From assembly GCA_035626395.1 (NCBI GenBank), contig DASPNR010000007.1:293012-357011 (forward strand): DNA of 64,000 bases, given 5' to 3'. Positions 1 through 47,561 of this stretch are shown here, in pieces. Below the pieces are notes generated by a model. That model searched no databases. It was not told where the DNA came from and saw nothing but the letters and a program-made list of their open reading frames with translations. Origin of the DNA: Candidatus Limnocylindrales bacterium. Its GTDB lineage: Bacteria; Desulfobacterota; Binatia; UBA1149; CAITLU01. Within the stretch, counting starts at the first letter, position 1; every line of letters starts with the position of its first letter. The position numbers were made by a program, and so were the translations under genes.

Positions 1-293
1 ACGCGGCGCTCGAGTATGCGGCCTTCGGGATACGCGTGAACGCCGTCTGCCCCGGCATCATTCGTACCCCCATGGCTGGGGATTTCTTCACGGGCGATGA
101 TGCGCAGAGCTCGCTGGAACGGCTGGCCGCGCGCGCTCATCCGCTCGGCCGCATCGGCGAGCCCTCCGACGTAGCCAAGCTGGTGACGTTCCTTGCCAGC
201 GACGACGCCTCGTTCATCACCGGCACGGCCATTCCCATCGACGGCGGCATGACGGCCGGTTTCCCGGTTCGGTCGCCCGAGGAGATGTTCTAA
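1..293 (+). CDS. Short-chain dehydrogenase/reductase (SDR), C-terminal part; the 5' end lies upstream of the window
   Basis: The ORF translation ...[12 protein letters not shown]...[11 protein letters not shown] is a typical SDR C-terminus. The reading frame is open from base 1. Confidence 0.8.
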
Positions 294-337
294 AAGGGAC
301 ACGGGCGCCCGTCAGCGCCGGGAGAAGGGGAACATTC

Positions 338-1087
338 GTGAGCGAGCGGGTTCAGGTGGTCGGCAGCTTCCTGTCGCCGTACGTGCGCAAGGTTCTGGTG
401 TGCCTGCACATCAAGGGGATTCCCTTCGAGATCGACCCTATCGTTCCCTTTCTTGGCGACGACCGCTTCTCGCAGCTCAGCCCGTTGCGGCGCATTCCGG
501 TCTTCATCGACGACTGGGTGACGCTGTGCGACTCCTCGGTGATCTGCCAGTATCTCGAAGACCGCTACCCGCGCCCGTCGCTGTACCCGCTCGACCTCGC
601 CGACCGCGCGCACGCGCGATGGCTCGAGGAGTTCGCCGATACGCGCATGGGCGAGGTTTTCATCTGGCGGCTGTTCAACCAGGTGGCAATCCGCCGTGCC
701 GTGTGGGGCGAGGACCCGGACATGAGCGTCCTGTCCAAGACGCTCAACGAGGAGATCCCGACCGTACTGGACTATCTCGAGTACGAGGTTCCGGACCAGG
801 GCTTTCTCTACGGCAACATCTGCGTGGGCGACATCGCCATCGCCAGCTTCTTCCGCAACGCCGCCTTCGCTCGATTCACCGTCGATGCATCGCGCTGGCC
901 GCGCACTGCGGCCTACGTCACGCGCGTCCTCTCCACCGACGGCTTCACGCGCCTGCAGCCTTACGAGGAGCGCTGCGCCAGGACGCCGATCGCGCAGCAT
1001 CGTGCCGCGCTGGCCGAGATGGGCGCGCCCTTGATGAAGGACACCTACGGCACCTCCACGCCGCGGCGCGGAATCATGACGATCTGA
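338..1087 (+). CDS. Glutathione S-transferase family protein
   Basis: The N-terminus has a thioredoxin-like GST fold (VGSFLSPYVRKVLVCLHIKGIPFE) and the C-terminal region is helical. The start codon is GTG. Confidence 0.7.
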   Translation: MSERVQVVGSFLSPYVRKVLVCLHIKGIPFEIDPIVPFLGDDRFSQLSPLRRIPVFIDDWVTLCDSSVICQYLEDRYPRPSLYPLDLADRAHARWLEEFADTRMGEVFIWRLFNQVAIRRAVWGEDPDMSVLSKTLNEEIPTVLDYLEYEVPDQGFLYGNICVGDIAIASFFRNAAFARFTVDASRWPRTAAYVTRVLSTDGFTRLQPYEERCARTPIAQHRAALAEMGAPLMKDTYGTSTPRRGIMTI

Positions 1088-1314
1088 CCGCGGCGTCTGC
1101 GTGCGGCGACGCCTTTCCCAGCAGTCGCCCTGCAACGCTACGCGCAGTGGCGCTGGCCCGGTCAAACGACGGCGCTGCGGCGACACGGGCATCGCCGGCG
1201 GCCGCGAAGATTTCGCGACTCGACTGAGGAGATCTTGAGAGGCACGAGGTGCGCGTGCGGCGTCCGCAGCCGCAGACACCGCACGCGCGAGGATCGAGTG
1301 GACGTCAGCCGCTG

Positions 1315-1704
1315 CTAGCGGCGGTTTCCCTGACGGCCGCCGCCGATGGTGCCTTCTTCCTCTTCGAGATCGGCTTCCTCTTCATCGAGGCGCTCTTCGA
1401 GCTCTTCGTCATCCAGCGACCCCTGCTGCGTGGACTGCTGAGTCTGCTGGCGGCCCATTCCGCCCTGGCCTTCCTGCTGGTTCTGCTGGCGGCCCTGTCC
1501 CTGCTGGCCTTGCTGACGCTGTCCCTGCTGTCCGCCTTGCTGCTGCTGCTGCTGTCCCTGCTGCCCCTGCTGGCGCTGCTGACCTTGCTGACCCTGCTGG
1601 TTCTGCTGACCTTGCTGACCCTGCTGGTTCTGCTGACGCTGCTGGCCCTGATGGGTCTGCTGTCCTTGATCGCCCTGCTGCTTGTTCCTGTCGGTCATGG
1701 TCAA
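1315..1704 (-). CDS. Glutamine-rich low-complexity protein (QGQQ repeats) with an acidic Glu/Asp-rich C-terminal tail
   Basis: A strong RBS (AGGAG, 7 nt upstream of the ATG) is present. The reading frame runs through the CAG/CTG-rich repeat tract and has a clean stop. It is convergent with the GST gene. Confidence 0.6.
   Translation of the reverse strand: MTMTDRNKQQGDQGQQTHQGQQRQQNQQGQQGQQNQQGQQGQQRQQGQQGQQQQQQGGQQGQRQQGQQGQGRQQNQQEGQGGMGRQQTQQSTQQGSLDDEELEERLDEEEADLEEEEGTIGGGRQGNRR
1425..1690. repeat. Imperfect CTG/CAG-rich tandem-repeat tract (about 9-18 nt units) encoding the QGQQ repeats
   Basis: Repeated ctgctggcc/ttgctgacg/ctgtccctg units are visible directly in the sequence. Confidence 0.7.
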
Positions 1705-1949
1705 ACTCCTAGGGTTGGGGAGGCGAAAAGCCTCGGGTTCTCGCGTGCAGTGGCGATGCTACCGCCGTTCGGCCGTCGCATCGCGGGCTGCAAAACAGAA
1801 AGTGCGCGGCAGGGTCGAAATCGAGCGTCGCTGCCCGCAACGGGGAGCAAAGCGCCACCCGCGTGCGGGCAACTGCCCGCGCAACGCGCAGCGGCCAGCG
1901 CAACGCCTGCGTGTTCCGCGAACGCGGCAGGCTGGGGGAAACCGCCGCG

Positions 1950-3167
1950 TCACGCTTTCGCGCGACGCGCAGTGCGGCGGGCGGCGCGGCCGTGCGTCTT
2001 CGAGGCACGAGAAGCGGGCGACGTGCGAGACGTGGCGGACGCTCGCGTCGGACGAGGCGTGCGGCCGCGGCAGCGGCGCAGAAACCGCAGCGTTTCGAGC
2101 TCGTCGGGTGCCATCCCCGTACGCGGCCGCTTGACCGGCGCGATTGCCGGCACCTCGCCGTCGCCTTTGCCGTTGCCGGAGGCGGAGAGCTCTCCCGAAG
2201 CGAAGCGCTCCAGAACCAACGGGTGAATGTAGCACTTGCGGCAGACAGCGACGGTGTTGCCGAGCTTTTCGGCGACCTGCTCCACCGCACGCAGGACCAG
2301 CTTCTTCGCCGCGCGCTCGGTGCTGGCGCTCGGGCACTTGCGCAGCAGCGACATTGCCAGGACGGTGCCGGCCCAGGTGCGAAAGTCGCGCGCGGTGAAC
2401 TCGCCGCCGCTGATCTCTCGCAGATACTCGTTGACGTCGCCCGAATGGACGTCGTGGATGTTGCCGTCCTCGTCGTAATAGCCGAACAGGTCCTGACCCG
2501 GAATGTCCTGGCATTTGCGCACCACACGGGCCACGCGCGGATCCTCCACGGCGATGTCGTGGCGCTTGCCGCTCTTGCCGCGAAATTGGAACCGGATAGT
2601 CGAGGCCTTCACGGACGCGTGGCGGTTCTTCATCGTCGTCAGGCCATAGGAGTTGTTGGTGCGGGCATACTCCTCGTTGCCGATGCGGATGAACGTCAGG
2701 TCCATCAGGCGTATGACCGTGGCCAGCACGCGTTCCCGCTCCATTCCTCTGCCCGCGAGGTCGCGCGTGACGCGGCGGCGGATGGCCGGTAGCGCCTTGG
2801 CGAAATCCAGCATGCGGTCGTATTTGGTCGCGTCGCGCACCTGGCGCCAGCGTGGATGGTAGCGGTGCTGCTTGCGGCCGCGCGCGTCGCGGCCGGTGGC
2901 CTGGACGTGCCCGTTCTCGTCAGGGCAGATCCAGACGTCGGTCCATGCAGGTGGAATGGCGAGCGAGCGAATGCGCGCAAGGGTGCGGCCGTCGCGGACG
3001 GGCTTGCCGCTGCCGTTGACGTAGCGGAAGGTTTTGCCTGCCTTGACGCGGCGGATCCCCGGCCCATCGTCGCTGACGTAGCGAAGGCCCACTGCGCGCG
3101 CCGACTCGGGGGGCGGGGGAACGGCTCCCATGGTGTTGCCGCCATTGCGCATGCGATTCCGGAGCAC
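1950..3167 (-). CDS. DNA topoisomerase IB (bacterial poxvirus-like type IB topoisomerase)
   Basis: Motifs LRYVSDDGPGIRR, AIPPAWTDVWICP and HRYHPRWR are characteristic of bacterial TopIB. The true start is probably internal, at ATG 3152 or 3131. The long basic C-terminal tail is unverified. Confidence 0.75.
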   Translation of the reverse strand: MLRNRMRNGGNTMGAVPPPPESARAVGLRYVSDDGPGIRRVKAGKTFRYVNGSGKPVRDGRTLARIRSLAIPPAWTDVWICPDENGHVQATGRDARGRKQHRYHPRWRQVRDATKYDRMLDFAKALPAIRRRVTRDLAGRGMERERVLATVIRLMDLTFIRIGNEEYARTNNSYGLTTMKNRHASVKASTIRFQFRGKSGKRHDIAVEDPRVARVVRKCQDIPGQDLFGYYDEDGNIHDVHSGDVNEYLREISGGEFTARDFRTWAGTVLAMSLLRKCPSASTERAAKKLVLRAVEQVAEKLGNTVAVCRKCYIHPLVLERFASGELSASGNGKGDGEVPAIAPVKRPRTGMAPDELETLRFLRRCRGRTPRPTRASATSRTSPASRASKTHGRAARRTARRAKA

Positions 3168-3211
3168 GGCGGCTCTGCCTGCCAGGCCGGGCCACTGTTA
3201 TAGGTTCTAAC

Positions 3212-3970
3212 ATGGAAGCGGCGAGGGTTGGGACCAGCGGATGGATCTACAAGAGCTGGGCGCAGACGTTCTACCCACCCGACGTCGGCAAGACCGGCCA
3301 CCTCGAGCACTACGCGCGCCGCTTCGACACCGTCGAGATCAATGCGAGCTTCTACCGCCTGCCGCCGGCCGAGACGGCGCGCGCGTGGTCGAAGAAGGTT
3401 CCGCGCGACTTCGTGTTCGCGCTCAAGGGCAGCCGCTTCATCACCCACATGAAGAAGCTGGCGGTGGATGGCAGGTCGATCGAGATCTTCTTCGAGCGTG
3501 CGCGAATGCTGGGCCGCAAGCTCGGGCCCATTCTGTGGCAGCTCCCGCCCCAGCTCGGTTACGACCCCGAGCGCCTCGAGCGGTTCCTGAAGACGGTCCC
3601 GCGACGCCATTCGCACGCCGTCGAGTTCCGCCATCCCTCCTGGTACGACCACGAGACGACGTTCGACATCCTGCGCGAGCGCCGCGCCGCTCACGTCTGC
3701 GTCAGCTCGCTCGGCATGGCGCGCAATCTTGCCGTGACGGCGGACTTCACCTACGTCCGCTTTCACGGGCTCGACGGCGGCGCAGCGCACGACTACACGC
3801 GTCGCGAGCTGCGGCCGTGGGCCGATCACTGCCGGCGCTGTCTGGAGACCGGCGTGGCCGTCTATGCGTACTTCAACAACGACGCCAACACGCGCGCGCC
3901 GAAGAATGCCGACACGTTCCGCGAAATGATCGGGGTCGTCACGCCGGCGGCGCGGGCAGCGTCACGGTGA
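3212..3970 (+). CDS. DUF72 family protein (YecE-like)
   Basis: WIYKSWAQTFYP...EINASFYRLP...LWQLPP is a canonical DUF72 signature. Confidence 0.8.
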   Translation: MEAARVGTSGWIYKSWAQTFYPPDVGKTGHLEHYARRFDTVEINASFYRLPPAETARAWSKKVPRDFVFALKGSRFITHMKKLAVDGRSIEIFFERARMLGRKLGPILWQLPPQLGYDPERLERFLKTVPRRHSHAVEFRHPSWYDHETTFDILRERRAAHVCVSSLGMARNLAVTADFTYVRFHGLDGGAAHDYTRRELRPWADHCRRCLETGVAVYAYFNNDANTRAPKNADTFREMIGVVTPAARAASR

Positions 3971-5636
3971 ACTCACTGCCCTGACCGATGCCGCCGCTGG
4001 CGGCCGCGACACTGCCGCCGTGCAGCTCCACCAGAGTCCGCACCAGCGTCAGCCCGATGCCGAGGCCGCCTTGCGATCGTTCCAGCGACCTGTCGCCCTG
4101 CGTGAAAAGGTCGAAGATCGTCGGCAGCAGCTCGGGGGCGATGCCGATGCCGGTGTCGCGAACGCGAATCCGGATCTGTCCAGCCTCCGCGGTGATGCCC
4201 AGGGTGATGATGCCGCCGTCATCGGTGTACTTGGCTGCGTTGTTGAGGAGGTTCGCCAGGACCTGCTCCAGGCGCGCGGCGTCGGCGTCGACGGGGAGGG
4301 GGCCTTCGGGCACCGTGACCTCGAGACGGTGGCGGCGCGAAGAGAGCAGCGGCGAGCAGGTTTCCACCGCCCGCGCCACGACCGTCTGGAGATCCACGCG
4401 CTGCTTTCGCAAGGCGATGGTGCCGCGCGTGATGCGGGCGACGTCGAGCAGATCGTCGACCAGGCGGGTCATGTGCTCGAGCTGCCGCACGACGATCGCG
4501 CTCGCGCGGCGGATATCCTCGTCCGCGTGGCCGGCGAGGGAGACGATCTCCATGGCGTTTCGCATCGGCGCCAGTGGATTGCGCAGCTCGTGCGCGAGCA
4601 TGGCCAGGAACTCGTCCTTGCGCCGATCGGCTTCGACCAGCGAGGCTTCGGCGCGCTTGCGCTGCAGGAACTGGCCGATCTGGCTGCCGATGGCCGAGAG
4701 CATGTTCAACACGTCGTCGTCGGTGGCGCGGACTTCGGGGCTGAAGAACTCGAGGGCGCCGCGTACGTCGGCGCCGAGCAGGATCGGAAACGCGAACGCG
4801 GCGTGCAGCCCGTCCGCGGTCGCGGCGGCGGCGCGCGGGAAGTTGTCGTCTCGCTGGATGTCCGCGGCCCATGCCGGTTGCCGAGAGGCCCACACGCGGC
4901 CGGGGAGACCTTTGCCGCGCGGCAGCACCAGCGCACGCGTCGCCGCCTCGAACTGCGGGATCTGCACGCCCGGCTGATGCCACACCTCCACGCAGCGCAT
5001 GACGGCGGCGCGATCGTCGACGATCCACAGGTCGCCGACACACCAATCCAGACAGTCGCACAGCGCCTCGATCACCCGCGGGGCGGCAGCCCTCAGCGTG
5101 TCGGCTTCGGCGAGGATGGCCGTCACCGCATGCTGCGCGGCGACGCGCCGCTCGGAGCGCTTGCGCTCGGTGACATCGCGCAGGATGGCCAGGTGCCGGT
5201 GCGGAAGGTAGTTGGCCGTGGCGCGAAACTCGATTTCGCACGTGCTTCCGTCCGGCCGCTGCAGGCGCAGCTCCCCGGCCAGCTCGCCGTCGCGCAGCAG
5301 GCCGCGCCACATGCGCGCAAATTGCTCGTCGCTGCCGAGCGCGCCCGACCCGGCACCGATGCGCTTGCCGAGGACGTCGGCAAGCGGGACGCCGTTCATC
5401 GCGCATGCGGCGGGGTTCGCGTCGACATAGCGGCCCTCGTCGTCGAGGATCACTACGCCGTCGAGCGCGCGGCGGAACAGCTCGGCGAAGTGACGATCGG
5501 TCGCTATTTCTCCAGCTCCTCGCGGATCGTGTACATGAGCTGGCGCGCGTCGATGATGAAGACGTCGAGGTTGCGCCGGTGGTTGGCGAAGATTCCCGAG
5601 GGGCCGCCGTTCATCACGACGAGCGGCTTGATCCAC
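3939..5636 (-). CDS. Sensor histidine kinase with PAS and GAF domains plus HisKA and HATPase_c
   Basis: HELRNPLAPM is the H-box, and DTGIGI...GGLGIGL are the G-boxes. PAS and GAF segments lie upstream of these. The ORF's first ATG overlaps the upstream gene by 133 nt, so the true start is probably an internal non-ATG codon. Confidence 0.8.
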   Translation of the reverse strand: MDQAARRDERRPLGNLRQPPAQPRRLHHRRAPAHVHDPRGAGEIATDRHFAELFRRALDGVVILDDEGRYVDANPAACAMNGVPLADVLGKRIGAGSGALGSDEQFARMWRGLLRDGELAGELRLQRPDGSTCEIEFRATANYLPHRHLAILRDVTERKRSERRVAAQHAVTAILAEADTLRAAAPRVIEALCDCLDWCVGDLWIVDDRAAVMRCVEVWHQPGVQIPQFEAATRALVLPRGKGLPGRVWASRQPAWAADIQRDDNFPRAAAATADGLHAAFAFPILLGADVRGALEFFSPEVRATDDDVLNMLSAIGSQIGQFLQRKRAEASLVEADRRKDEFLAMLAHELRNPLAPMRNAMEIVSLAGHADEDIRRASAIVVRQLEHMTRLVDDLLDVARITRGTIALRKQRVDLQTVVARAVETCSPLLSSRRHRLEVTVPEGPLPVDADAARLEQVLANLLNNAAKYTDDGGIITLGITAEAGQIRIRVRDTGIGIAPELLPTIFDLFTQGDRSLERSQGGLGIGLTLVRTLVELHGGSVAAASGGIGQGSEFTVTLPAPPA

Positions 5637-6463
5637 GCGGCTTCACGCAGCGAGTGCGCGACGTGATCGAACAGCTCGAGCACCGCCTCGCGTCCCGCCA
5701 GCGACGTCTCGTACTCGCGCCGCAGCGCCACCGTCAGGTGGAACATGACGTGCGCGACGCCCTGCGCATGGTAGAAGTGATCGTCGGTCTGCAGGAAGCC
5801 CACGTCCTCGCGCAGAAGATTGGCGTGCGCATCGCCGAGCATGTCGGTCCAGGTCTGGAAGAGGCGGATCAGCTCGACGTTGCGGCGATTGATCGGCTTG
5901 GACGTCGGCGCCGGCGTCGCGAGGCCCGCGACGTAGCGCCGCAGCGACTCGACGCCGTCGCGGAAGCGCGACTCCGCCGACGGGAACCAGAACTTGTGCT
6001 CGTCGTTGCGCAGCCGCGTCTCCGCATCGACCAGGTTCTGGTCGTATTCGCTCGCGGAGACCTTGGTCAGATGATCGCGAAAGACGCGCGTGCTCTCGCG
6101 AACCGCCTGGATGATGCCGAGCTGACGGTTGGCGTTGTTGTCCGCCATCAGCGCCGGTCCCCACAGGATGAAGTCGTTGGGCCGCCAGCCCGTGGTGCTG
6201 TCGAGCTCGTGCTGGACCAGAGCCGCTACCGTCGACGCGAATGCCTCGCCGCCCACCATCGGACGGTCGGCCGGGAACTCGTTGTGGACGTGGAACGGAA
6301 GACGGTTGTGGCTTATCTGCGTGAAGTGCAGGAACAGCGGGGTCACCAGGAAGAGGAGTATCAGGATCGCGCCGGCTGCGGACTGAAGCATGGTGGCGAA
6401 GCGTACTGTGTGGCCGCGGAGGGTCCAACCGCGGCGCTCAGGAGGCCGGAAAGTCGCGAGCAT
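5504..6463 (-). CDS. Conserved hypothetical protein with an N-terminal transmembrane anchor, possibly DUF2333-like
   Basis: Codon usage looks coding. It sits directly upstream of the PAS/GAF kinase and overlaps it. The start is either 6463 or 6391 (MLQSAAG...). The family assignment is from memory and uncertain. Confidence 0.55.
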   Translation of the reverse strand: MLATFRPPERRGWTLRGHTVRFATMLQSAAGAILILLFLVTPLFLHFTQISHNRLPFHVHNEFPADRPMVGGEAFASTVAALVQHELDSTTGWRPNDFILWGPALMADNNANRQLGIIQAVRESTRVFRDHLTKVSASEYDQNLVDAETRLRNDEHKFWFPSAESRFRDGVESLRRYVAGLATPAPTSKPINRRNVELIRLFQTWTDMLGDAHANLLREDVGFLQTDDHFYHAQGVAHVMFHLTVALRREYETSLAGREAVLELFDHVAHSLREAAWIKPLVVMNGGPSGIFANHRRNLDVFIIDARQLMYTIREELEK

Positions 6464-9400
6464 CCTGTCCCCGCGTCAGCCTCGCCAGCGTCGTCTCGAC
6501 CTGCGCCAGCTCGACCGGCTTCATCAGGTGGGCGTTGAACCCTGCGTCCGCGCTCTTTCGGCGGTCTTCCCCCTGGCCGTATCCGGTCACGGCAATGAGC
6601 GCGGTATCGGCGTGCTGGGGCTGCTTGCGCAGCCGTCGTGCGACCTCGTAGCCGTCCATGCCGGGAAGCCCGATATCGAGCAGGATCGCATCGGGATCGA
6701 AGCGTGCGGCGATGTGAAGGGCCGCCTCGCCGTCGTGTGCGGTGCGGACCTGATGGCCGGCCAGTCGAAGCAGGACCGCGAGGCTTTCGGCGGCATCGAC
6801 GTTGTCGTCGACGATCAGCACCCGCCGCGCGGCGGCCGCCCTTTCGGCCTCGGTGCGCGGCATGGGAGCCATCGCGCCGTCCTCGCGCCGGATGGGAAGG
6901 CGCAGCTCGAAGACGCTGCCACGTCCGATGCCTTCGCTGCCGGCCTGGATCTGGCCGCCGTGCAGCTCGACCAGCCGCCGCACCAGAGTCAGCCCGATTC
7001 CGAGGCCGCCGCCGGAGCCGGTGGAGCGGTGCACCTGCATGAAGGGCTCGAACACGCGCGAGAGCATCTCGGGAGCCAGTCCCGTTCCATCGTCCCTCAC
7101 GCGCACCACGGCTGCGGGAACGGCGGCGCCGTCAGCCTGCTCGCGCGACAGCGTTACCCAGATGTTGCCGCCCTCGTGCGTGAACTTCGAGGAGTTGCCC
7201 AGCAGATTGGCCAGGATCTGCTCGAGGCGCATGGGATCGCCGTCGACGAACGTCGCCTGCCCGTCCAACTCCAGATGCAGGTGCTGCTCGTGGCCTTCGA
7301 GTGCGGGACGCAGCGCCTCGCACGTCCGATGCACGACCTGCGCGAGGTCGAGCGGCTCCAGCCGCAGATGGATCCGGCCGCTGGTGATGCGAGAGACGTC
7401 CAGGAGATCGTCGATCATGCGCGCCATGTGCGCGATCTGGCGCTCCATCATGGCGCGCGTGCGGACTGTCGTATCCGGATCGTCGACCATTTGAAGCACT
7501 TGCGAGCCGCTGCTCATGGCGGCAAGGGGATTGCGAAGCTCGTGCGCGAGCATGGCCAGGAATTCGGTCTGACGGCGGTTGGCCTGCGCGAGCTGCTCGA
7601 CCCTGGTACGCAGCGACTCCTCCAGGGCCTTGCGGTGCGTGATGTCCTTCATCGAGAGGACGATGGAGAAGTCTCCGTCGTCTCGCGTCAGCCGCTGCGC
7701 GTTCAGGAGCAGGGTGCGGCGCACGCCGCCGTCGGCGGTGAACGAGTGCTCGAAGTCCTCCATGGGCGTGCCGGTGTAGCGAACCGCATCGAGGGCGCGT
7801 CGCAGGTCGGCCGTGTTCCACCGCCCGTCGCAGATGCGCGGTAGCGGGCTTTGCTCGACGTCGGCGGCCGACAGTCCCATCGCGTCATAGAACCTGTCAC
7901 TCGCCTTCTGCACGCGCAGGTCCGCATCCAGCACGAGCAGCGGCTCGGCGACCGCCGCCACGATCGCTTCGGCGTACCGCCGCGCGCGCGCTAGCGTGTC
8001 GATGTCCACGAGCAGCAGCACCACCCCGTCCAGACGGTTGTCGAGCGTGCGATACGGCCATATGCGCAGCGAGTGCCAACGGCCCTGCTTGTCCTGGACG
8101 TCCATCTCCTGAAACGTCATCGAATCGATGACCTCGGTCACCAGGGGTTCCAGGTCGTCGATGCTGAGGCCGAGCTTCAAATCGGAGATGGAGCGGCCGA
8201 CGTCGCTGCTGCGCACGTTCAGGACGCGCTCTGCTGCCGGCGTCACCCGGCGGATGCGCAGGTTGGCGCCCAGCATGATAATCGGCATGCGGACGCTGGC
8301 CAGGAGGTTGACGAGGTCGTTGTTGGTCTGGCTCAGCTCGTGATTCCGCCGGCTGAGCTCGTCGTTGAGCGTGGCCAGTTCCTCGTTGCTGGACTCGATT
8401 TCCTCCTTGGAAGTCTGCAGCTCCTCGTTGATGCTCTGCAGCTCTTCATTGGCCGACTGCACCTCCTCGTTCGCTGCCTGCAGTTCCTCGTTGGCCGCTT
8501 CCTGCTGCTCCACCACCGATTGCAGATACTCGCGAGTCGCCGCCAGCTCGCTGAGCAGCCGGCGTGTCTCGTCGTTGTCCTCCGGTGCCATCGTGGCCAT
8601 CGGCACGGCCGGCTGCGCGTCCTCCGTCGGGCTGGCGGAGAACGTCACGAGATAGTGATCGCCGCTGCCGGTGCTGCGGACAGGGATGACCTCGACGTGC
8701 GCTTCGAGCGGATCCTCATCGGTGCCGAGCGCGATGCCGGACGTCCGCACGGGTACGCCATCGCGCCGAGCGCGGTCGCACGCGTTGCGTACCGGCGCCA
8801 CGAGCGCCTCCGGCAGCATCTTCAGCAGGTTCAGCGATGCGGTGCCCGACGCTGGAGCGATGAACCGGCTGGTGTCGCCGCGGAACTGCAGTATCTCGAG
8901 GTCAGCGGTCACCAGCACGCCCGGCGGTGCGTAGCGCGCGAGCAGCAGGCGGTCCGCCTCTTTGTGCGGATCGCTGGACCTTGCCGCGGCCGGACGTTCG
9001 GAGCGTGCCGGCCAGTACGCCGCCAGGCCGCTACGGCGCGTTCCCGGCGCCGATATGGTGGGGGAGGAGCGCGCGCCGGCTTTCTTGCCGTAGAAGTTGA
9101 ACGTCTGGCTGGCGCTGTCGAACAAGTGCGCGGCCCCGACGATCGCTTCCGAAGGGCCCAGCCATAGGATGCCGCCGGGCTTGAGCGCGTAGTGCAGCGT
9201 CGGCATCAGCCTCTCCTGCAGGCTGCGTTCGAGGTAGATCATCATGTTGCGGCAGCTGACGAGGTCCATGCGCGAGAACGGCGGCTCTGCAAGCCCGTTG
9301 TGCGTCGCGAACACGCACATCTCCCGCGTGGCGCGGTTGACGCGGTAGCAGTCGCCCATGCGAACGAAGAACTGACGCAGCCGCTCTGGAGAAACGTCCT

Positions 9401-10535
9401 TCTCGATGCTCCTGGAGTAGACGCCGCTGCGAGCCTTCTCGATGCCTGCCGGATTGAGATCGGTGGCGAATATCTGCACCGGCAGGGGCCGTCCTCTCTG
9501 CTGTGCGAACTCCTGGCAGATGATCGCGATCGAATACGCCTCCTCTCCGGTCGAGCAACCCAGAACCCAGATCCGCAGCGGCTCCAGCCGGCTGCGCTCC
9601 GACACCAGTGCCGGAAGAATTTCGTCCCGCAGCGCTTCGAAAGCTTCGGGGTTACGGAAGAAGCTGGTGACGTTGATCAGGATGTCGTGGAAAAGGTTCT
9701 CCACTTCCTCCTGGCTGGAGCGGAGCAGCTCGAGATACTGGCCGAGGTCGTGCAGCTTGTGCAGCACCATGCGCCGGGTCACGCGGCGGAACAGGGTGCT
9801 GTGCTTGTAGTGCGAGAAGTCGGCTCCGAGGCTGTCGCTGATGACGTCGAGGATTTCGCGCAGCTCGTTCCCGTCGAGGCGCTCGCCGGCTTCGAATCTG
9901 TCCCGGTCGACGTACGGGTGGCGCGCCATGCGTCGCAGCTCGCCCGCGATCTGCTCGGGAGGCAGCACCAGATCGACACAGCCGGCCGCAATGGCCGAGC
10001 GCGGCATGCTTACCTGCTGCGCGGTTGAATCCTGCGCGAAGGCGAAGCCGCCGGCGCCCTTGATTTCCTCGAGACCGACGGTGCCGTCGTCGCCCAGGCC
10101 CGAGAGCAGGACGCCGATTGCGCGGCGCCCCTGCTCGGAGGCCAGAGCCAGCAAGAACGTGTCGATCGGCTGCGGCCGCCCGTGCGTGTCGTCGCGCGGC
10201 GTCAGACGGAGCCTGCCACCGGCAATGACCATGCTCGTGTTGGGAGGGATGACGTAGACGTGATCGGGAGCGACCTCCTGATCATCCTCGACCTTGACCA
10301 CCGGCATGTCGGTGAGGCGGGCGAAGACCTCGTCGAGCTGGCTCGGATAGTTGGGCGCAAGGTGCGTGACGAACACGAAGGCCATGCCGGTGTCGGGCGG
10401 CAGGGCCCGTAGCATGGCCGAAAACGCTTCGATTCCACCGGCCGAAGCGCCCACGCCCACCACCGGGAACGGCAGCGCTGGCTCGGGCAGATCGAAAGCT
10501 ATTTCTTCTTTTCGGGCCCCGGTGTCATCGGCCAT
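6438..10535 (-). CDS. Hybrid chemotaxis-type sensor kinase with domain order CheB methylesterase - CheR methyltransferase - PAS - coiled coil - HisKA - HATPase_c - REC
   Basis: GVGASAGG is the CheB motif. VLGCSTGEEAYS marks the CheR SAM-methyltransferase fold. A heptad coiled coil (EELQ...) follows, then HELRNPL, then a DD...D...K receiver domain. Confidence 0.9.
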   Translation of the reverse strand: MADDTGARKEEIAFDLPEPALPFPVVGVGASAGGIEAFSAMLRALPPDTGMAFVFVTHLAPNYPSQLDEVFARLTDMPVVKVEDDQEVAPDHVYVIPPNTSMVIAGGRLRLTPRDDTHGRPQPIDTFLLALASEQGRRAIGVLLSGLGDDGTVGLEEIKGAGGFAFAQDSTAQQVSMPRSAIAAGCVDLVLPPEQIAGELRRMARHPYVDRDRFEAGERLDGNELREILDVISDSLGADFSHYKHSTLFRRVTRRMVLHKLHDLGQYLELLRSSQEEVENLFHDILINVTSFFRNPEAFEALRDEILPALVSERSRLEPLRIWVLGCSTGEEAYSIAIICQEFAQQRGRPLPVQIFATDLNPAGIEKARSGVYSRSIEKDVSPERLRQFFVRMGDCYRVNRATREMCVFATHNGLAEPPFSRMDLVSCRNMMIYLERSLQERLMPTLHYALKPGGILWLGPSEAIVGAAHLFDSASQTFNFYGKKAGARSSPTISAPGTRRSGLAAYWPARSERPAAARSSDPHKEADRLLLARYAPPGVLVTADLEILQFRGDTSRFIAPASGTASLNLLKMLPEALVAPVRNACDRARRDGVPVRTSGIALGTDEDPLEAHVEVIPVRSTGSGDHYLVTFSASPTEDAQPAVPMATMAPEDNDETRRLLSELAATREYLQSVVEQQEAANEELQAANEEVQSANEELQSINEELQTSKEEIESSNEELATLNDELSRRNHELSQTNNDLVNLLASVRMPIIMLGANLRIRRVTPAAERVLNVRSSDVGRSISDLKLGLSIDDLEPLVTEVIDSMTFQEMDVQDKQGRWHSLRIWPYRTLDNRLDGVVLLLVDIDTLARARRYAEAIVAAVAEPLLVLDADLRVQKASDRFYDAMGLSAADVEQSPLPRICDGRWNTADLRRALDAVRYTGTPMEDFEHSFTADGGVRRTLLLNAQRLTRDDGDFSIVLSMKDITHRKALEESLRTRVEQLAQANRRQTEFLAMLAHELRNPLAAMSSGSQVLQMVDDPDTTVRTRAMMERQIAHMARMIDDLLDVSRITSGRIHLRLEPLDLAQVVHRTCEALRPALEGHEQHLHLELDGQATFVDGDPMRLEQILANLLGNSSKFTHEGGNIWVTLSREQADGAAVPAAVVRVRDDGTGLAPEMLSRVFEPFMQVHRSTGSGGGLGIGLTLVRRLVELHGGQIQAGSEGIGRGSVFELRLPIRREDGAMAPMPRTEAERAAAARRVLIVDDNVDAAESLAVLLRLAGHQVRTAHDGEAALHIAARFDPDAILLDIGLPGMDGYEVARRLRKQPQHADTALIAVTGYGQGEDRRKSADAGFNAHLMKPVELAQVETTLARLTRGQDARDFPAS

Positions 10536-11052: not shown

Positions 11053-11371
11053 GAGGTCTCCTTGCGCATTCGCGCCGAAGGGGCGCGTCGCGTCTGAAAC
11101 GGCGACTGCCTCCGGCGCCGGATTATTCGTAACGTCCCGTTTGCCGCGAACATTCGCGGGACGGGCTGCCTGACCCGTTCGAGGCGGGTTTCGCACGCAT
11201 CGAGTCTGGGGCGGCCTCTTTGGAGGGACGCCGCCGCATTGCGCGACCGCCTTCGGGTCAAACCGTCTTGCTGAGGTCGCCCTATGCGGCGTAGCCATGG
11301 AGAGAACAGTGATTCCTGACGACCTGCAGCGTTTCCGCGCTGCGCGTGCGCTGAACGAAGGAGAGACCCAG

Positions 11372-13936
11372 ATGCTGACGTTCCGAAGCGCCACGATGAG
11401 AGCCGCCGCGTTGGCGCTCGTCTGCCTGTTCCTTCCCCTGCCGGCCCAGGCACTGACCGACGCCGAGACCGAGTGCCGACTGGTCATCGCCAAGAGCATG
11501 GCCACATACACGCGGGCCGCGCTTCGCGTCACCAAGAAATGCCACCGCCGGCGCAGCGCCGGGCGTATCCCCCTCAGCATCGATTGCAGCGATCTGTCGC
11601 AGGCGGACACGCGCAACAAGCTGCCCGAGTACCGAACGCTCGTGCTCGACCGCATCGGCGGAGCAGGCAGCCCCTGCTCGCAGACGCCCGGGCTCCTGTC
11701 GCGCTACCCGAGTTGTCCCGCGCCTGCCCAGAGCGCCGATGACGGCGGCGCCTCGACGGGAATCGACTCCTTCACCGAGGTGGCGCAGTGCCTGATGGCG
11801 CTGACCGACGCCGAGGTCGGTGATTTGTCCGAGGAGACGGCCGGCGATCCGGCAAGCCCGCTCAGCGAAGCGGCGCTGCAGTGTCAGACGGCGATCTCCG
11901 AAGGCGTCAAGCGCATCGTCAAGCGCTACATGCACGAGCGGCGTCTTTGTCAGCGCAATCTCGACCAGGCGGGCGGCGGTCTCGACTACGGCTGCGAGGG
12001 CGCCGACCCGAACGGCCGCATCGCGCAGGCGCGCACCGCGGTCAGCAACTCCATCGCCACCCACTGTACGCTGTCGCAGGCCGAGCTGGCCACGCTCGAC
12101 TCGTGCGGCGATACCACGGCCGAGCTGCAGCAGTGCGTCGTCGCCGCCGCCGACGAAACCGGCGCCGATCTGATCGAGAACGCCTACGAGCTGCCCGGCG
12201 CAACGACGACGACCACGGAGGCGCCGCCGACCACGACGCTGGCGCCCACGACGACCACGACGATCTCCGGCCCGACGACCACGCTCGGCGCCACCACCAC
12301 GACGATCACCGGCCCCACCACCACCGTGGGACCGACGACGACGACGCTGACGGGCCCGACCACCACCGTCGGGCCGACCACGACGACCCTGACGGGCCCG
12401 ACCACCACGACGATGCCGGAGGCGCAATGCGCCGATACGTTCCCGCTGTGCAACGGCGCGTGCGGCGACGGCACGTTCTGCGGCGTCGACGGGACGGCGT
12501 GCGTCTGCGAGGCGGCCACCGGCGCCTGCGCGCCGGCAACGATCGAACGCGTCTTCCACGCGAAGTACGAGGGCAGCCAGACCAGCCTCAGCACCGGCTG
12601 GACCGGCACGGCGCACGACGTCGACATCCCCGGCGGCAGCCGCGACGTCGTCGACGTCGTCTGCGACCAGGAGTGCGAGAACTGCCAGGTCTCGCTCAAC
12701 GTGCAGGAAGGGCAGACCGTGTCGAACTGTCGCTGCGCTTCCTCGCCGCAGACCACCTGCACCGTCATCAACGGGCCCGATCCCGACAACTGCGGCGTCG
12801 TCGACTCCTCGTGCAACTGCTACTTCGGCTCCCCGCTGGCCATCTCCGCCGGCGGAACGCCGGTGTGCGTGACCAACGAGATCATCGAGGACTACAGCGG
12901 GACGATGAACCTGCGTACCGGCGAATGGTACGAGCGCACCAAGCTCGCCTCGGTGGTCCATCTCGGCGCCGACGTGTTCAATCCCTGCCCGCTGTGCGCA
13001 GGCGACGAAACGGCCAATGACGGCGTTCGCGGCGGCACCTGCGAGGGCGGCCTGCAGGACGGCATGAGCTGCGACGTCAACGGCGACCACCTCACGTTCG
13101 GACCGACCAGCTTCGACTGCCCGCCGCCGAGCCTCAGCAACATCAGCGGCAGCGGGCTGCTGCTCGACCTGAAGTTCTCGACGGGCCCGCAAGCGCTGGC
13201 GGCGAACCTCCCGTGCGATACGCCGGACGATGCGCTGTGCGCGTGCCGCGTCTGCTCGGGCAACAACAGGGTCGGCTGCGCCACCAACGCCGACTGCGAG
13301 GAATTCGACGCAGGAACCTGCACGGCCGGAGGTGGCGCGGGCGTCCAGCCCAACGAGTGCACGGATTTCGAATGCGGCGAGGACGATCGCTGCACGCAGG
13401 GCCCCATCGACAACTTCTGTGACGGCGTGACCCATCCCGACGGCCGCGGTTTCCTCAGCTGCGTGAGCGACCTGGACTGCCAGGCCCTGGGAGCGGGGCA
13501 GTGCACGGTCCAGGATCTGCGCCGCTGCTACAACTATCCGATCGAGACCACCGGCGACCCGGACATCGAGGAGCCGGTCAAGGCATCGATCTTCTGCATC
13601 CCGCCCACGACGAGCCCGGCCGTGAACTCCTCCGGCGGCCTGCCCGGCCCCGGTGTGTTCCGTCTGGACTTCGACGTGGACGTCCGATGCCAGAACGATC
13701 CGACCAAAGCCTACCAGTTCCCGAGCGGCGACAACTGCAACGAGTCCACGACCACGACGATCCAGGGCGGTACGACGCTGCCGCCGCTGACCACGACGCT
13801 GCCGGATGTGCCGACGACGCTGCCGGTGGCGGACTGCGCCCAGGCCACGCCGCCGCTGTGCGTGGGCGTCTGCGGGCCGGGAGAGGCGTGCGTGCAGGGC
13901 CTGTCGGGCTGTCAGTGCGGGGGGATCATGCCCTAA
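11372..13936 (+). CDS. Large secreted cysteine-rich protein with a poly-Thr linker; paralog A
   Basis: RBS GGAGAG precedes the ATG. The signal peptide is MLTFRSATMRAAALALVCLFLPLPAQA. A roughly 70-aa T/P/G linker is encoded by tandem repeats. More than 60 Cys residues follow, with motifs TGWTGTAHD, CNCYFG, NPCPLC, ANDGxRGG, FCIPPT and GLPGPG. Confidence 0.85.
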   Translation: MLTFRSATMRAAALALVCLFLPLPAQALTDAETECRLVIAKSMATYTRAALRVTKKCHRRRSAGRIPLSIDCSDLSQADTRNKLPEYRTLVLDRIGGAGSPCSQTPGLLSRYPSCPAPAQSADDGGASTGIDSFTEVAQCLMALTDAEVGDLSEETAGDPASPLSEAALQCQTAISEGVKRIVKRYMHERRLCQRNLDQAGGGLDYGCEGADPNGRIAQARTAVSNSIATHCTLSQAELATLDSCGDTTAELQQCVVAAADETGADLIENAYELPGATTTTTEAPPTTTLAPTTTTTISGPTTTLGATTTTITGPTTTVGPTTTTLTGPTTTVGPTTTTLTGPTTTTMPEAQCADTFPLCNGACGDGTFCGVDGTACVCEAATGACAPATIERVFHAKYEGSQTSLSTGWTGTAHDVDIPGGSRDVVDVVCDQECENCQVSLNVQEGQTVSNCRCASSPQTTCTVINGPDPDNCGVVDSSCNCYFGSPLAISAGGTPVCVTNEIIEDYSGTMNLRTGEWYERTKLASVVHLGADVFNPCPLCAGDETANDGVRGGTCEGGLQDGMSCDVNGDHLTFGPTSFDCPPPSLSNISGSGLLLDLKFSTGPQALAANLPCDTPDDALCACRVCSGNNRVGCATNADCEEFDAGTCTAGGGAGVQPNECTDFECGEDDRCTQGPIDNFCDGVTHPDGRGFLSCVSDLDCQALGAGQCTVQDLRRCYNYPIETTGDPDIEEPVKASIFCIPPTTSPAVNSSGGLPGPGVFRLDFDVDVRCQNDPTKAYQFPSGDNCNESTTTTIQGGTTLPPLTTTLPDVPTTLPVADCAQATPPLCVGVCGPGEACVQGLSGCQCGGIMP
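12205..12420. repeat. Tandem repeats of about 39 nt encoding the (GPTTTVGPTTTTLT)n linker of Cys-rich paralog A
   Basis: Repeating ggcccgaccaccaccgtgggaccgacgacgacgacgctgacg units are visible. Confidence 0.8.
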
Positions 13937-21381: not shown

Positions 21382-21429
21382 TGATCGACTCACGGCGAGG
21401 GAACTCGCCACAACCAGGAGGTAGCAGTC

Positions 21430-21894
21430 ATGAGCAGGATCTCTTTTCGCACGGTCGCCGTCACCGCAGGTCTGATCGTTGCAGCGGGCACCGTGTACGC
21501 CGACGCTCCCAGGCTCGACGATGGCGCGACCGGAGCGCAGCTGGCGCAGACCGGCAGCGGGTCAGGCAAGGCCGGCTCGGCGGCCGGAAGGATGGGAGCG
21601 GGTACGAACACCGACTCGGGAACCAACACCGACAGTGGGACCAACGCCGACGCCGCGCCGGGCGCCGCGGGCAGCGCGCCCGGCCGCTTGGGAACCACGC
21701 CAGGTCAGGCGGGCACGGCGCCTGGAATGGGCGGCACGGCTCCCGGCACGGCCGGCACCGTTCCGCCGGCCGGATCGGGCGCGGGCAGCACTGGCAGCGG
21801 TACCGGCACTGGTACCGGCACGGGCACCGGTACCGGTAGCGGCACTGGCAGCGGCACTGGCAGCGGCACCGGCACTGGCAGCGGCGGTCGCTGA
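21430..21894 (+). CDS. Secreted Gly/Thr/Ser-rich low-complexity protein ending in a (GTGS)n repeat
   Basis: AGGAGG RBS precedes the ATG. The signal peptide is MSRISFRTVAVTAGLIVAAGTVYA. The 3' end is encoded by tandem GGCACYGGY repeats. Confidence 0.65.
   Translation: MSRISFRTVAVTAGLIVAAGTVYADAPRLDDGATGAQLAQTGSGSGKAGSAAGRMGAGTNTDSGTNTDSGTNADAAPGAAGSAPGRLGTTPGQAGTAPGMGGTAPGTAGTVPPAGSGAGSTGSGTGTGTGTGTGTGSGTGSGTGSGTGTGSGGR
21789..21888. repeat. (GGCACYGGY)n microsatellite-like repeat encoding (GTGS)n
   Basis: The unit ggcactggcagcggcactggcagc... is visible directly. Confidence 0.8.
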
Positions 21895-45908: not shown

Positions 45909-46001
45909 CGCGCGCACTCGCACGCCTCGCGAAGTGGCGATGCGCGCTGCGGATGAAATAGAATCGCGGTTGCTCTAGTCGAAAGAGCCGGAGGAGGAGA
46001 C

Positions 46002-46457
46002 ATGAGCAGTCGTGGAAGTCTGGTGGTGTTCGCGACGACGATGGCTCTCGGAATCGCCGTCGCCGGTTGCGCGTCGGGGCCGATGACGCGGCGTGAGGAA
46101 GGGCTGGCGGCAGGCGCCATCGTCGGCGCCGGCTCCGGAGCGGTGATCGGGGCCGCCGCGGGCGATCCGGCGGCGGGCGCCATCATCGGCGGCGCTCTGG
46201 GCGCGATCACGGGCGCTGCCATTGGCGACGCGCAGCAGGCACGGGAGCAGGAAGCGTACTATCTCGAGCAGCGCGCTCGGGAGCAGGAATACGAGCTGGC
46301 CCGGCAGCGCGCGGAGATCGAGCGTCTGCGTCGCGAGCGCGGAGAGCCCGGGTATCGCGACCCCTACGAGCCTCCCTACAGCCAGCCGCACGGCTACTAC
46401 TCGGAGCGCTACTACGAGAGCCGTCACAACGACGACGGCGACTATTACGAGTACTGA
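46002..46457 (+). CDS. Lipoprotein with a glycine-zipper segment, a coiled coil and a Tyr-rich tail
   Basis: GGAGGAGGAG RBS precedes the ATG. The lipobox is AVAGC. The Gly-zipper is AGAIVGAGSGAVIGAAAGD... Confidence 0.7.
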   Translation: MSSRGSLVVFATTMALGIAVAGCASGPMTRREEGLAAGAIVGAGSGAVIGAAAGDPAAGAIIGGALGAITGAAIGDAQQAREQEAYYLEQRAREQEYELARQRAEIERLRRERGEPGYRDPYEPPYSQPHGYYSERYYESRHNDDGDYYEY

Positions 46458-46467
46458 GGAACGTTCG

Positions 46468-47298
46468 ATGAAAGAGCACGATGCGCGGCGCGACGCAGCG
46501 CGTGCCGACGGCGCCGCTGACGGCCGGCGCAGGTCCGCCTCCGCCGTCCGGCATGGCGACGGCGCCTGGCGGGCTGCATGGGGCGCAGGGTGGGCAGCCG
46601 TCGTGGTCCTCGTCATCGCGGGGTGCGCTTCGGGTCCTCCCACGGCACGCGAGCACGGCATGGCCACGGGCGCGATCCTCGGTGCCACGAGCGGCGCCAT
46701 CATCGGCCAGGCTGCCGGCGGCACGGCCGAAGGAGCGTTGATCGGTGGGGCGGTCGGCGCCATCGCCGGCGGCGCCATCGGCGATCAGCACGACGCCTAC
46801 CACCGGCGCAACGCCCCGCTGCACGAGGACGTTGCGCGCCGCGACGCCGAGATCGCCCGCAACCGCGCGCTCATCGCCGAGCTGAGGGGCCGCAGCGTCG
46901 CCGTCTCGTCCGATGCTCGCGGCGTGGTCGTCACGCTCCCCGACGTCTTCTTCGCATTCGACAGCGACCGCCTGACGCCCGACGCGGTCGTGGCCATCGC
47001 GGACATCGGCGAGGTTCTGCGCGGACCGCATGCATCGGGGCGCCGCATTGCCGTCGAAGGCCACACCGATGCCGTCGGCACGCGCCAATACAACCAGTGG
47101 CTGTCGGAGCGCCGTGCATGGGCGGTGGCGGATGAGCTGGCGGCGCGCGGCGTCGACCGCCGGCGGCTGGCCGTACGCGGGTTCGGCGAAGCGTTCCCGG
47201 TGGAGCCGAACGTGCTTCCCGACGGCTTCGACAACCCCCGCGGACGTGCACGAAACCGGCGTGTGGAAGTGATCGTTCTCAACCCGCCGCTGGGCTGA
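46468..47298 (+). CDS. OmpA-family lipoprotein (glycine-zipper module plus C-terminal OmpA-like peptidoglycan-binding domain)
   Basis: The lipobox is IAGC. The OmpA-like motifs are EGHTD..G...N..LS..RA and RRVEV. Confidence 0.75.
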   Translation: MKEHDARRDAARADGAADGRRRSASAVRHGDGAWRAAWGAGWAAVVVLVIAGCASGPPTAREHGMATGAILGATSGAIIGQAAGGTAEGALIGGAVGAIAGGAIGDQHDAYHRRNAPLHEDVARRDAEIARNRALIAELRGRSVAVSSDARGVVVTLPDVFFAFDSDRLTPDAVVAIADIGEVLRGPHASGRRIAVEGHTDAVGTRQYNQWLSERRAWAVADELAARGVDRRRLAVRGFGEAFPVEPNVLPDGFDNPRGRARNRRVEVIVLNPPLG

Positions 47299-47561
47299 CC
47301 GCCCGCCGTGTGGCTGCGCCAGGGCGGCAGCCGCGCGCGGGCGCCGGGCCCAGCCGCGCCTTGCCCCCACCTGGCCAAGGGGCCGCCGGGCCGCCGGCTC
47401 CTACCTTCGACCGACGGTTCGGAAGCAGGATCCGCCCCGGACGGCAGGCTTCTGGCCCTCAATTCGACCGCTGCAAAGCTTCTGAGGCCAAGGCTATAGT
47501 CAGCCGCGCCGACTCGGGGCTACAAAAGAAGGGAACCGCGCATCTCAAAGGAGGACCGTGC

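Follow-up and report, generated by a model that had tools for sequence, protein, structure and literature searches.

A conserved glutamine-rich gene beside a bacterial topoisomerase IB gene, compared with hydrophilins and other low-complexity proteins

SspE of Bacillus, a gamma-type small acid-soluble spore protein, is a Gln/Gly-rich, repeat-built and unstructured reserve of amino acids and nitrogen. The C-terminal tail of single-stranded DNA-binding proteins (SSBs) combines a Gly/Gln/Pro-rich linker with an acidic tip and serves in protein docking. Candidate prion-like (Q/N-rich) domains have also been described in bacteria, including those of Clostridium botulinum Rho and some SSBs (PMC6400439), and DtpA and DtpB, hydrophilins of bacteria, give protection against desiccation (PMC13552118). 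Here, we compare with these systems a small glutamine-rich open reading frame (ORF), referred to below as the Q gene, that lies beside a DNA topoisomerase IB (TopIB) gene in a 64,000-nt stretch of contig DASPNR010000007.1 (assembly GCA_035626395.1), with a G+C content of 68.5%; the whole stretch is hereafter called the window. Judging from its comparison with an ortholog, the ORF is a genuine, selectively conserved gene whose Gln frame is translated. The reading of its product that we favour, albeit with less than even confidence, is that of a lineage-restricted, hydrophilin-like and possibly self-associating stress protein that is genetically coupled to TopIB.

The nearest relative of the window's TopIB (76% identity) is found at locus L163, on a contig of a metagenome-assembled genome labelled Candidatus Binatia (GCA_035626675.1). 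The two loci have a gene order in common, consisting of a CheB/CheR kinase, DUF2333, a PAS-GAF kinase, DUF72, TopIB and then a 127-aa gene lacking a Pfam match, the L163 product of which reads MTDRNKQQGDQGQQSQQ...DDDELEERLDEEEADLEEEEGSGGGRQGNRR. An earlier, sequence-only reading of the window had drawn the Q gene as an ORF at 1315..1704, and this ORF does exist on the minus strand, closed by a TAG stop at 1317-1315. The TTG codon at 1704 is not kept in the L163 ortholog, where TCG takes its place, whereas the ATG at 1698-1696 is kept and is therefore the likely start. Translation from this ATG yields a product of 127 aa, and public contigs carry the identical gene call. The ribosome-binding site (RBS) noted in the same reading is likewise present, as an AGGAG at 1710-1706 with a spacer of 7 nt to the ATG.

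In G+C-rich DNA with an open antisense frame, the length of an ORF is by itself no evidence of a gene, and the strand opposite the Q gene carries just such a frame, a poly-Leu one that is open in both the window and the L163 ortholog because CAG and CTG are complementary. The Q genes of the window and L163 were compared codon by codon, with the ratio of non-synonymous to synonymous substitution rates (dN/dS) calculated by the Nei-Gojobori method. Differences at codon positions 1/2/3 number 19/18/51. Read in the Gln frame, 34 of the codon differences are synonymous and 25 non-synonymous, versus 12 and 47 in the antisense frame; within the unambiguous C-terminal 40 codons, the respective counts are 12 and 5 in the sense frame and 0 and 17 in the antisense one. 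The dN/dS of the Q gene is 0.13 overall and 0.06 at the termini, at a dS of about 1.1-1.3, whereas that of the adjacent TopIB in the same two genomes is 0.22 and that of the antisense frame 1.0-1.6. Moreover, dN itself is nearly the same for the Q gene (0.16) and TopIB (0.17). By this measure of substitution, the Gln frame is under purifying selection as strong as that acting on the neighbouring TopIB. The segments MTDRNKQQGDQGQQ, ELEERLDEEEADLEEEEG and GGGRQGNRR are identical between the two proteins, and every codon change within them is synonymous, with eight such changes (and no non-synonymous ones) in ELEERLDEEEADLEEEEG, which lies within the acidic motif, and three in GGGRQGNRR. The sequence-only reading had named expression of the poly-Leu antisense frame as the outcome that would overturn it, and the dN/dS of 1.0-1.6 in that frame against 0.13 in the sense frame speaks for the opposite. 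A 325-aa plus-strand ORF at 1249-2226, whose poly-Leu part lies antisense to the Q gene and whose dN/dS is about 1-1.6, is an artefact that arises from the complementarity of CAG and CTG where DNA is rich in G+C.

The protein encoded by the Q gene is composed of 40.9% Gln, 19.7% Gly, 9.4% Glu and 7.9% Arg; it has a grand average of hydropathy (GRAVY) of -2.40, a net charge of -7 and eight hydrophobic residues. Its Gln/Gly content, put at about 70% in the sequence-only reading, was measured as 61% over the whole protein and 80% over residues 6-90 (Q 58%, G 22%). Nor does the description "poly-Gln" fit, as the longest pure Q run is 6, compared with the uninterrupted run of about 10 or more expected of a poly-glutamine protein. 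Instead, the array is of the form (X-Q-Q)n, with 15 triplets in one register and X being G, R, N, K, T or Q. Residues 1-95, which contain the array, are weakly basic (+7/-3), while 15 of the 22 residues in a scored segment made up of DDEELEERLDEEEADLEEEE plus G116 and T117 are acidic. The acidic end that had been claimed is therefore present as a block, but not as an end: the protein continues past DDEELEERLDEEEADLEEEE into the Gly/Arg tip GTIGGGRQGNRR, and its actual C-terminus is the basic GGGRQGNRR. A collagen-like protein was rejected, with G leading only about half of the triplets (R, N, K, T or Q lead the others) and no match to the Collagen family of Pfam, and an encapsulin cargo tag was also rejected from the sequence.

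The Q gene was correctly placed by the earlier reading as co-directional with, and just downstream of, TopIB, both genes being on the minus strand and separated by a spacer of 251 nt. The neighbour possesses the domains that define bacterial TopIB, namely Topoisom_I (PF01028, 5.6e-41) and Top1B_N_bact (PF21338, 8.2e-26). A third instance, locus L171 (run SRR29498860), encodes a TopIB that is 68% identical, followed after 210 nt on the same strand by a Q gene whose RBS, ACAGGAGTCAGACCAATG, resembles that of the window and whose product begins MAEQTRQQGQQRQQGQPGQQDKQEKQGQPEKQRQ... before becoming incomplete at the end of the contig. In all three of the known loci, then, the Q gene is co-directional with TopIB and lies 210-260 nt downstream, and the three linked TopIBs form one clade in a neighbour-joining tree. 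The flanks are less constant. Upstream of the pair is DUF72 in the window and L163, versus a BON/DksA-type zinc-finger gene in L171, and downstream of it is GST in the window, versus a 1142-aa HZS_alpha-like gene in L163. As the flanks differ while TopIB and the Q gene persist together, the pair constitutes a conserved unit. The DUF72 gene of the window (3212-3970, plus strand; Pfam 5.6e-71) is divergent from TopIB, as it is in L163 but not in L171, and the hydrazine synthase alpha-like gene of L163 (7873-11301, plus strand) sits between the Q gene and GST and is absent from the window.

Beyond these three loci, no such Q gene was found in the sister TopIB clade (64-74% identity; L164-L170, L172 and L173), and no Q-rich neighbour was found at 160 more distant TopIB loci (<=64% identity) from genomes and metagenomes among the matches listed. 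In six-frame scans of the approximately 170 TopIB loci listed, other ORFs reached at most 0.33 Gln per 30-40-aa window, versus 0.70 here. On the loci compared, the Q gene so far appears restricted to uncultured soil bacteria that carry the label Binatia and make up a small clade. The labels themselves are at odds: Candidatus Limnocylindrales is the label of the public record that has the identical TopIB, and Candidatus Binatia that of its syntenic nearest relative, L163; one of the two is probably wrong. Near the locus is a gene for the light chain of methylamine dehydrogenase, in line with the methylotrophy that has been described for Binatota.

Table 1. Positions of the Q gene, its parts and the neighbouring features in the window
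Feature	Position	Strand	Basis or remark
Coding sequence of the 127-aa Gln/Gly-rich protein	1315..1698	minus	ORF list, public-contig gene call, ortholog dN/dS 0.13
(X-Gln-Gln)n array, residues 6-92	1423..1683	minus	Tandem Repeats Finder (TRF), repeat search, triplet register
Perfect 2 x 27-nt duplication (NQQGQQGQQ x2) in the array	1576..1629	minus	Repeat search; not as such in L163
Acidic motif DDEELEERLDEEEADLEEEE, residues 96-115	1354..1413	minus	Ortholog alignment, segment charge, AlphaFold2 (AF2) helix 97-109
12-residue Gly/Arg C-terminal tip GTIGGGRQGNRR, residues 116-127	1318..1353	minus	Ortholog comparison
17-bp GC-rich hairpin about 30 nt past the stop, terminator-like, without a U tract	1251..1288	minus	Fold z -2.36
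Shine-Dalgarno AGGAG, 7 nt before the ATG	1706..1710	minus	CCCTAGGAGTT(T/C)GACCATG conserved in L163, similar in L171
5'-UTR hairpin GAGGC-UUUUC-GCCUC just upstream of the Shine-Dalgarno	1720..1734	minus	Same place in L163; stem sequence differs in L171
GTAGCATCG, a conserved block of the intergenic spacer, some 57 nt upstream of the ATG	1754..1762	minus	Alignment
T-rich block CUUUCUGUUUU after hairpins, about 100 nt upstream of the ATG	1792..1802	minus	T-run equivalents in L163 and L171
Bacterial DNA topoisomerase IB gene, upstream partner	1950..3152	minus	Pfam, gene call, clade analysis

The Q-gene protein is cytoplasmic, very hydrophilic and, as predicted from its composition, most likely intrinsically disordered; on a Uversky charge-hydropathy plot, its mean scaled hydropathy of 0.23 against a boundary of 0.43 places it on the disordered side. 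Two operational criteria for hydrophilins (PMC4190154) are a Gly content above 6% and a GRAVY below -1. Both full-length orthologs lie within these limits, with Gly at 19.7% in the window and 22.8% in L163 and GRAVY at -2.40 and -2.28, respectively. The likeness to hydrophilins proposed in the sequence-only reading consequently holds for Gly content and GRAVY, while a third measure, taken up below, falls short.

Taken together with the stress-type gene context, these hydrophilin criteria are what lead us to favour a hydrophilin-like stress protein. The protein has three parts: a weakly basic (X-Gln-Gln)n tract of about 90 residues, which tolerates the in-frame gain or loss of units while keeping its composition and overall length; an acidic segment of 20 residues, strictly conserved and bearing a narrow Leu stripe; and a Gly/Arg tip that is conserved as well. 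On this reading, it would act as a hydrophilin-like protectant or a self-associating polar scaffold, produced jointly with TopIB in stress or stationary phase. The Gln tract would supply bulk hydration and hydrogen bonding, with the acidic motif and basic tip mediating self-association or contacts with partners.

With regard to the gene context, an MscS-cNMP channel gene is found near the locus in the window, and a BON-domain gene adjoins TopIB in L171. Among the genes of the sister-clade TopIB loci are those for GT4, a GDE/MGH1-like glycosidase, BON-MscS, DUF2254 and DUF4142, and this neighbourhood resembles an island of genes for osmotic or desiccation stress. In Sphingomonas melonis, a TopIB, a glycosyltransferase and a glycosidase all belong to the EcfG-dependent general-stress genes (PMC6599016). 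The slot after the sister-clade TopIB is occupied by two small convergent genes (L164 7094-7683, L166 7093-7553, L169 2967-3427 and L170 5003-5466). The first of them encodes a very hydrophilic protein of 76 aa (GRAVY -1.49, Gly 14.5%) lacking a Pfam match, and the second a Cys-rich, zinc-ribbon or metallothionein-like protein of 77 aa (zf-FCS, 7e-05).

Several observations weigh against the reading as a hydrophilin-like stress protein. The three-criterion version of the hydrophilin definition also calls for a mean hydrophilicity above 1, and on the Hopp-Woods scale, which is assumed for this version, the mean is 0.66 in the window and 0.69 in L163; Gln scores only 0.2 on that scale, which accounts for the low value. 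Neither full-length ortholog matches a profile of the LEA, dehydrin, KGG (YciG, GsiB) or CsbD families, and no homology to any characterised hydrophilin was found with the Pfam and NCBIfam profiles. Plain disorder is at odds with a single-sequence AF2 model, in which residues 3-75 form a confident helix (pLDDT up to 95) and residues 97-109 another, with a pTM of 0.35. However, AF2 models of low-complexity sequence are unreliable, with long single helices being a common output for Q-rich repeats, and a monomeric helix is unlikely to be stable with Gly recurring every three residues. The strictly conserved short motifs argue for a specific partner and not for bulk protection. The stress context is circumstantial, as it is drawn in part from the sister clade and from an unrelated phylum, and the full-length Q-gene proteins number two.

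Relatives were also sought elsewhere. Neither full-length ortholog matched a Pfam family at E <= 10 or an NCBIfam family at E <= 1, and a sequence search of the PDB gave no match. A full-length, phmmer-type search of 5.8 billion proteins yielded 8000 candidates, flooded by Q-rich words and with no significant match among them, while an alignment of the conserved termini used as a query returned 98 candidates, none of them at E <= 10. Finally, an exhaustive HMMER search of 1.84 billion representatives gave 0 matches, not even to the query; when phmmer was run locally at the same database size, the self match scored 4e-51 and the ortholog 1e-22. Since query and ortholog are both missing, as exact sequences, from at least one of these libraries and Q-rich words swamp the results, the absence of homologs is weak evidence and reflects the libraries no less than the biology.

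The foremost alternative, although we consider it unlikely, is that the Q gene encodes a dedicated TopIB accessory factor. The acidic helix, as a DNA mimic or docking element, and the basic tip would then bind the topoisomerase or its DNA substrate so as to regulate, recruit or sequester it, with the Gln tract serving as a flexible spacer or a condensate-forming nucleoid tether. Much of what is described above would be compatible with this: TopIB and the Q gene alone persist as a unit across the three loci, with changes on either side, their TopIBs are monophyletic, the dN of the two genes matches, and the exclusively synonymous changes in the acidic motif are typical of a binding interface. 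In addition, DNA-binding and DNA-processing proteins of prokaryotes have more than their share of low-complexity regions enriched in Gln and Gly (PMC6821194). On the other hand, the roughly 170 other TopIB loci listed, including the sister clade at 64-74% identity, manage without such a gene, and the spacer of 210-260 nt with its T-rich hairpin region suggests separate transcription. To our knowledge, bacterial TopIB works without partners. Three related genomes are, moreover, a small sample, in which adjacency may simply have been inherited by descent. A bolder version, in which the Q gene would encode the first dedicated partner of a bacterial TopIB, a block polyampholyte that combines a DNA-mimicking or docking acidic helix with nucleoid condensation by the X-Q-Q tract and thereby controls relaxation in stress or dormancy, must be regarded as a long shot.

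Alternatively, and with a probability that we rate as low, the Q gene could be a young, lineage-specific gene that arose from a CAG/CTG-rich tract, with a bulk role such as nitrogen-rich storage, on the pattern of the gamma-type spore proteins, or a marginal function, in which case its adjacency to TopIB would be accidental. Its restriction to one small clade and lack of any family match are in keeping with such an origin, as are the 1.71 N atoms per residue of its product. Codon usage is atypical as well: G+C at third codon positions (GC3) is 0.74, versus 0.84-0.89 in neighbouring genes, and GAA exceeds GAG. In full, GAA:GAG is 8:4, versus 14:63 in the neighbours, and GAT:GAC is 4:2, versus 15:75; selection against perfect DNA repeats is one possible reason and foreign or recent origin another. 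Set against a young gene are the equal lengths of the orthologs, a dN/dS of 0.06-0.13 and terminal motifs that are identical at a dS of about 1.1-1.3; the low dN/dS and identical termini imply sustained, position-specific constraint beyond what a storage or marginal role would impose.

A further possibility concerns the repeat array, which the sequence-only reading took to be an imperfect tandem array able to expand or contract by slippage. The array itself was borne out at the DNA level, with TRF reporting periods of 9, 18, 27 and 39 at 61-80% matches and a repeat search finding 18 overlapping copies at 9-nt spacing. Together with the perfect 27-nt duplication, a fresh one in the window lineage, the in-frame indels of 3, 3, 9 and 3 nt, which are the only ones separating the window from L163, indicate that units have been gained and lost over evolutionary time. 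These same features would fit a slippage-driven contingency locus, whose repeat number shifts fast between cells or strains and thereby varies the protein, yet we regard this as very improbable. Contingency loci are built of near-perfect, slippage-prone repeats, whereas the units here match at 61-80% only, or 73-80% at periods of 9, 18 and 27, and lack long perfect runs, and their DNA is broken up by mixed synonymous codons (CAA amid CAG, and Gly as GGT, GGA, GGC and GGG). Furthermore, both full-length orthologs are 127 aa long, and on/off frameshifting is impossible with a period that is a multiple of 3. No polymorphism was observed among the available contigs. The exact protein of the window is present on four contigs, and the JGI and ENA contigs (two loci compared) have 0 mismatches to the window over 9.7-16 kb; as they are apparently one assembly deposited several times, these identical copies are silent on repeat-number polymorphism. 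The contigs in question, L001 and L002 (JGI 3300021061 and ENA ERZ27252495), are identical to window positions 1-9698. From its codon-level make-up, the array looks like a composition- and length-constrained spacer rather than a contingency locus, and the proposed slippage is weakly grounded.

Finally, the notion that the frame is wrong, with the antisense poly-Leu ORF (1249-2226, plus strand) being expressed or the region being non-coding, can for practical purposes be set aside, for although the antisense product looks like membrane helices and its frame is open in both genomes, this openness is automatic from CAG/CTG complementarity, the minus-strand RBS and ATG are conserved, and the antisense substitutions, 0 synonymous versus 17 non-synonymous in the C-terminal 40 codons, are those of a frame with a dN/dS of 1.0-1.6.

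The sequences flanking the Q gene contain several candidate signals (Table 1). A hairpin comparable to that past the stop codon follows the stop of the L163 ortholog, again after about 30 nt (z -2.86), and in a search of the locus against Rfam only spurious, sub-threshold matches were returned, of which the miRNA ones reflect the hairpin at 1251-1288. The fold z-scores of the 5'-UTR hairpin are not significant, and a consensus fold of the three 5' UTRs came to -2.45 kcal/mol, with the hairpins misplaced by the alignment. The GTAGCATCG block is a possible, putative -10-like element, and the T-rich block may represent the TopIB terminator, its fold z-scores likewise not being significant. No sigma-70 promoter was recognised by scanning, no sigma-54 promoter by eye and no promoter of the EcfG type, the pattern GGAAC-N15-18-CGTT giving one irrelevant match at 5983.

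Four further ORFs were noticed in the window, all on the plus strand. Two of them, at 11174-13933 and 47136-49652 (about 920 and 840 aa from stop to stop), have extended poly-Thr/Ser tracts and no Pfam match, and may encode secreted or surface proteins with Thr-rich linkers. A Gly/Thr/Ala/Pro-rich ORF at 21385-21891 runs into a (Gly-Thr)n repeat and also lacks a Pfam match; its opposite strand is open too, and its coding frame is uncertain. A glycine-zipper protein (PF13488, 4e-07; PF13441, 3e-06) is encoded at 45957-46454.

Should the favoured reading of the Q gene as a hydrophilin-like stress gene be true, it would add an unusual kind of bacterial hydrophilic disordered protein, dominated by Gln instead of charge, from a phylum without cultured members. 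It would also provide a case in which the repeat tract of a low-complexity protein gains and loses units through indels even as strong purifying selection preserves the protein's length, composition and terminal motifs. The recurring pairing with TopIB bears on an enzyme whose part in bacterial physiology is not yet clear, although the distribution of the Q gene is very narrow and the gene opens no long-standing question.

Measured against the systems with which we began, the Q-gene protein fails the tests of homology or defining features for the hydrophilin, SspE, prion-like and SSB-tail families, but it shares something with each of them. Like SspE, it is small, Gln/Gly-rich and repeat-built; unlike SspE, it has an acidic block, no match to the SASP_gamma family of Pfam and no germination-protease site to compare. 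The host clade is, moreover, not known to be spore-forming. With the bacterial prion-like domains, it has in common a long, low-complexity, Q-rich tract (Q 58% plus N 4% over 85 residues, a composition suggestive of such a domain) and a sporadic, lineage-restricted distribution, but those domains are appended to folded proteins of known function, whereas the tract of the Q gene makes up nearly the whole protein, and a tract in which every third residue is Gly or Arg and aromatics are lacking speaks against amyloid. The eukaryotic polyQ proteins resemble it in their CAG-rich coding DNA and Gln-dominated tract, and differ from it in that the array of the Q gene is interrupted as X-Q-Q, is degenerate at the DNA level and has no Q run longer than 6. 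The SSB tail offers a parallel in that its disordered polar linker leads into a conserved acidic docking motif and in its link to DNA metabolism, yet the Q-gene protein is devoid of an OB fold, an SSB match in Pfam and the terminal hydrophobic Pro-Phe, and its acidic block, modelled as helical, spans 20 residues and is set back from the extreme C-terminus, which is GGGRQGNRR. Finally, while the bacterial hydrophilins, including the YciG type of E. coli and DtpA and DtpB of Acinetobacter baumannii, are rich in charged residues and the non-homologous Q-gene protein is dominated by Gln and carries a discrete, conserved acidic motif, all of them are small, cytoplasmic, Gly-rich, extremely hydrophilic and repeat-containing, with neither a predicted fold nor a signal peptide.

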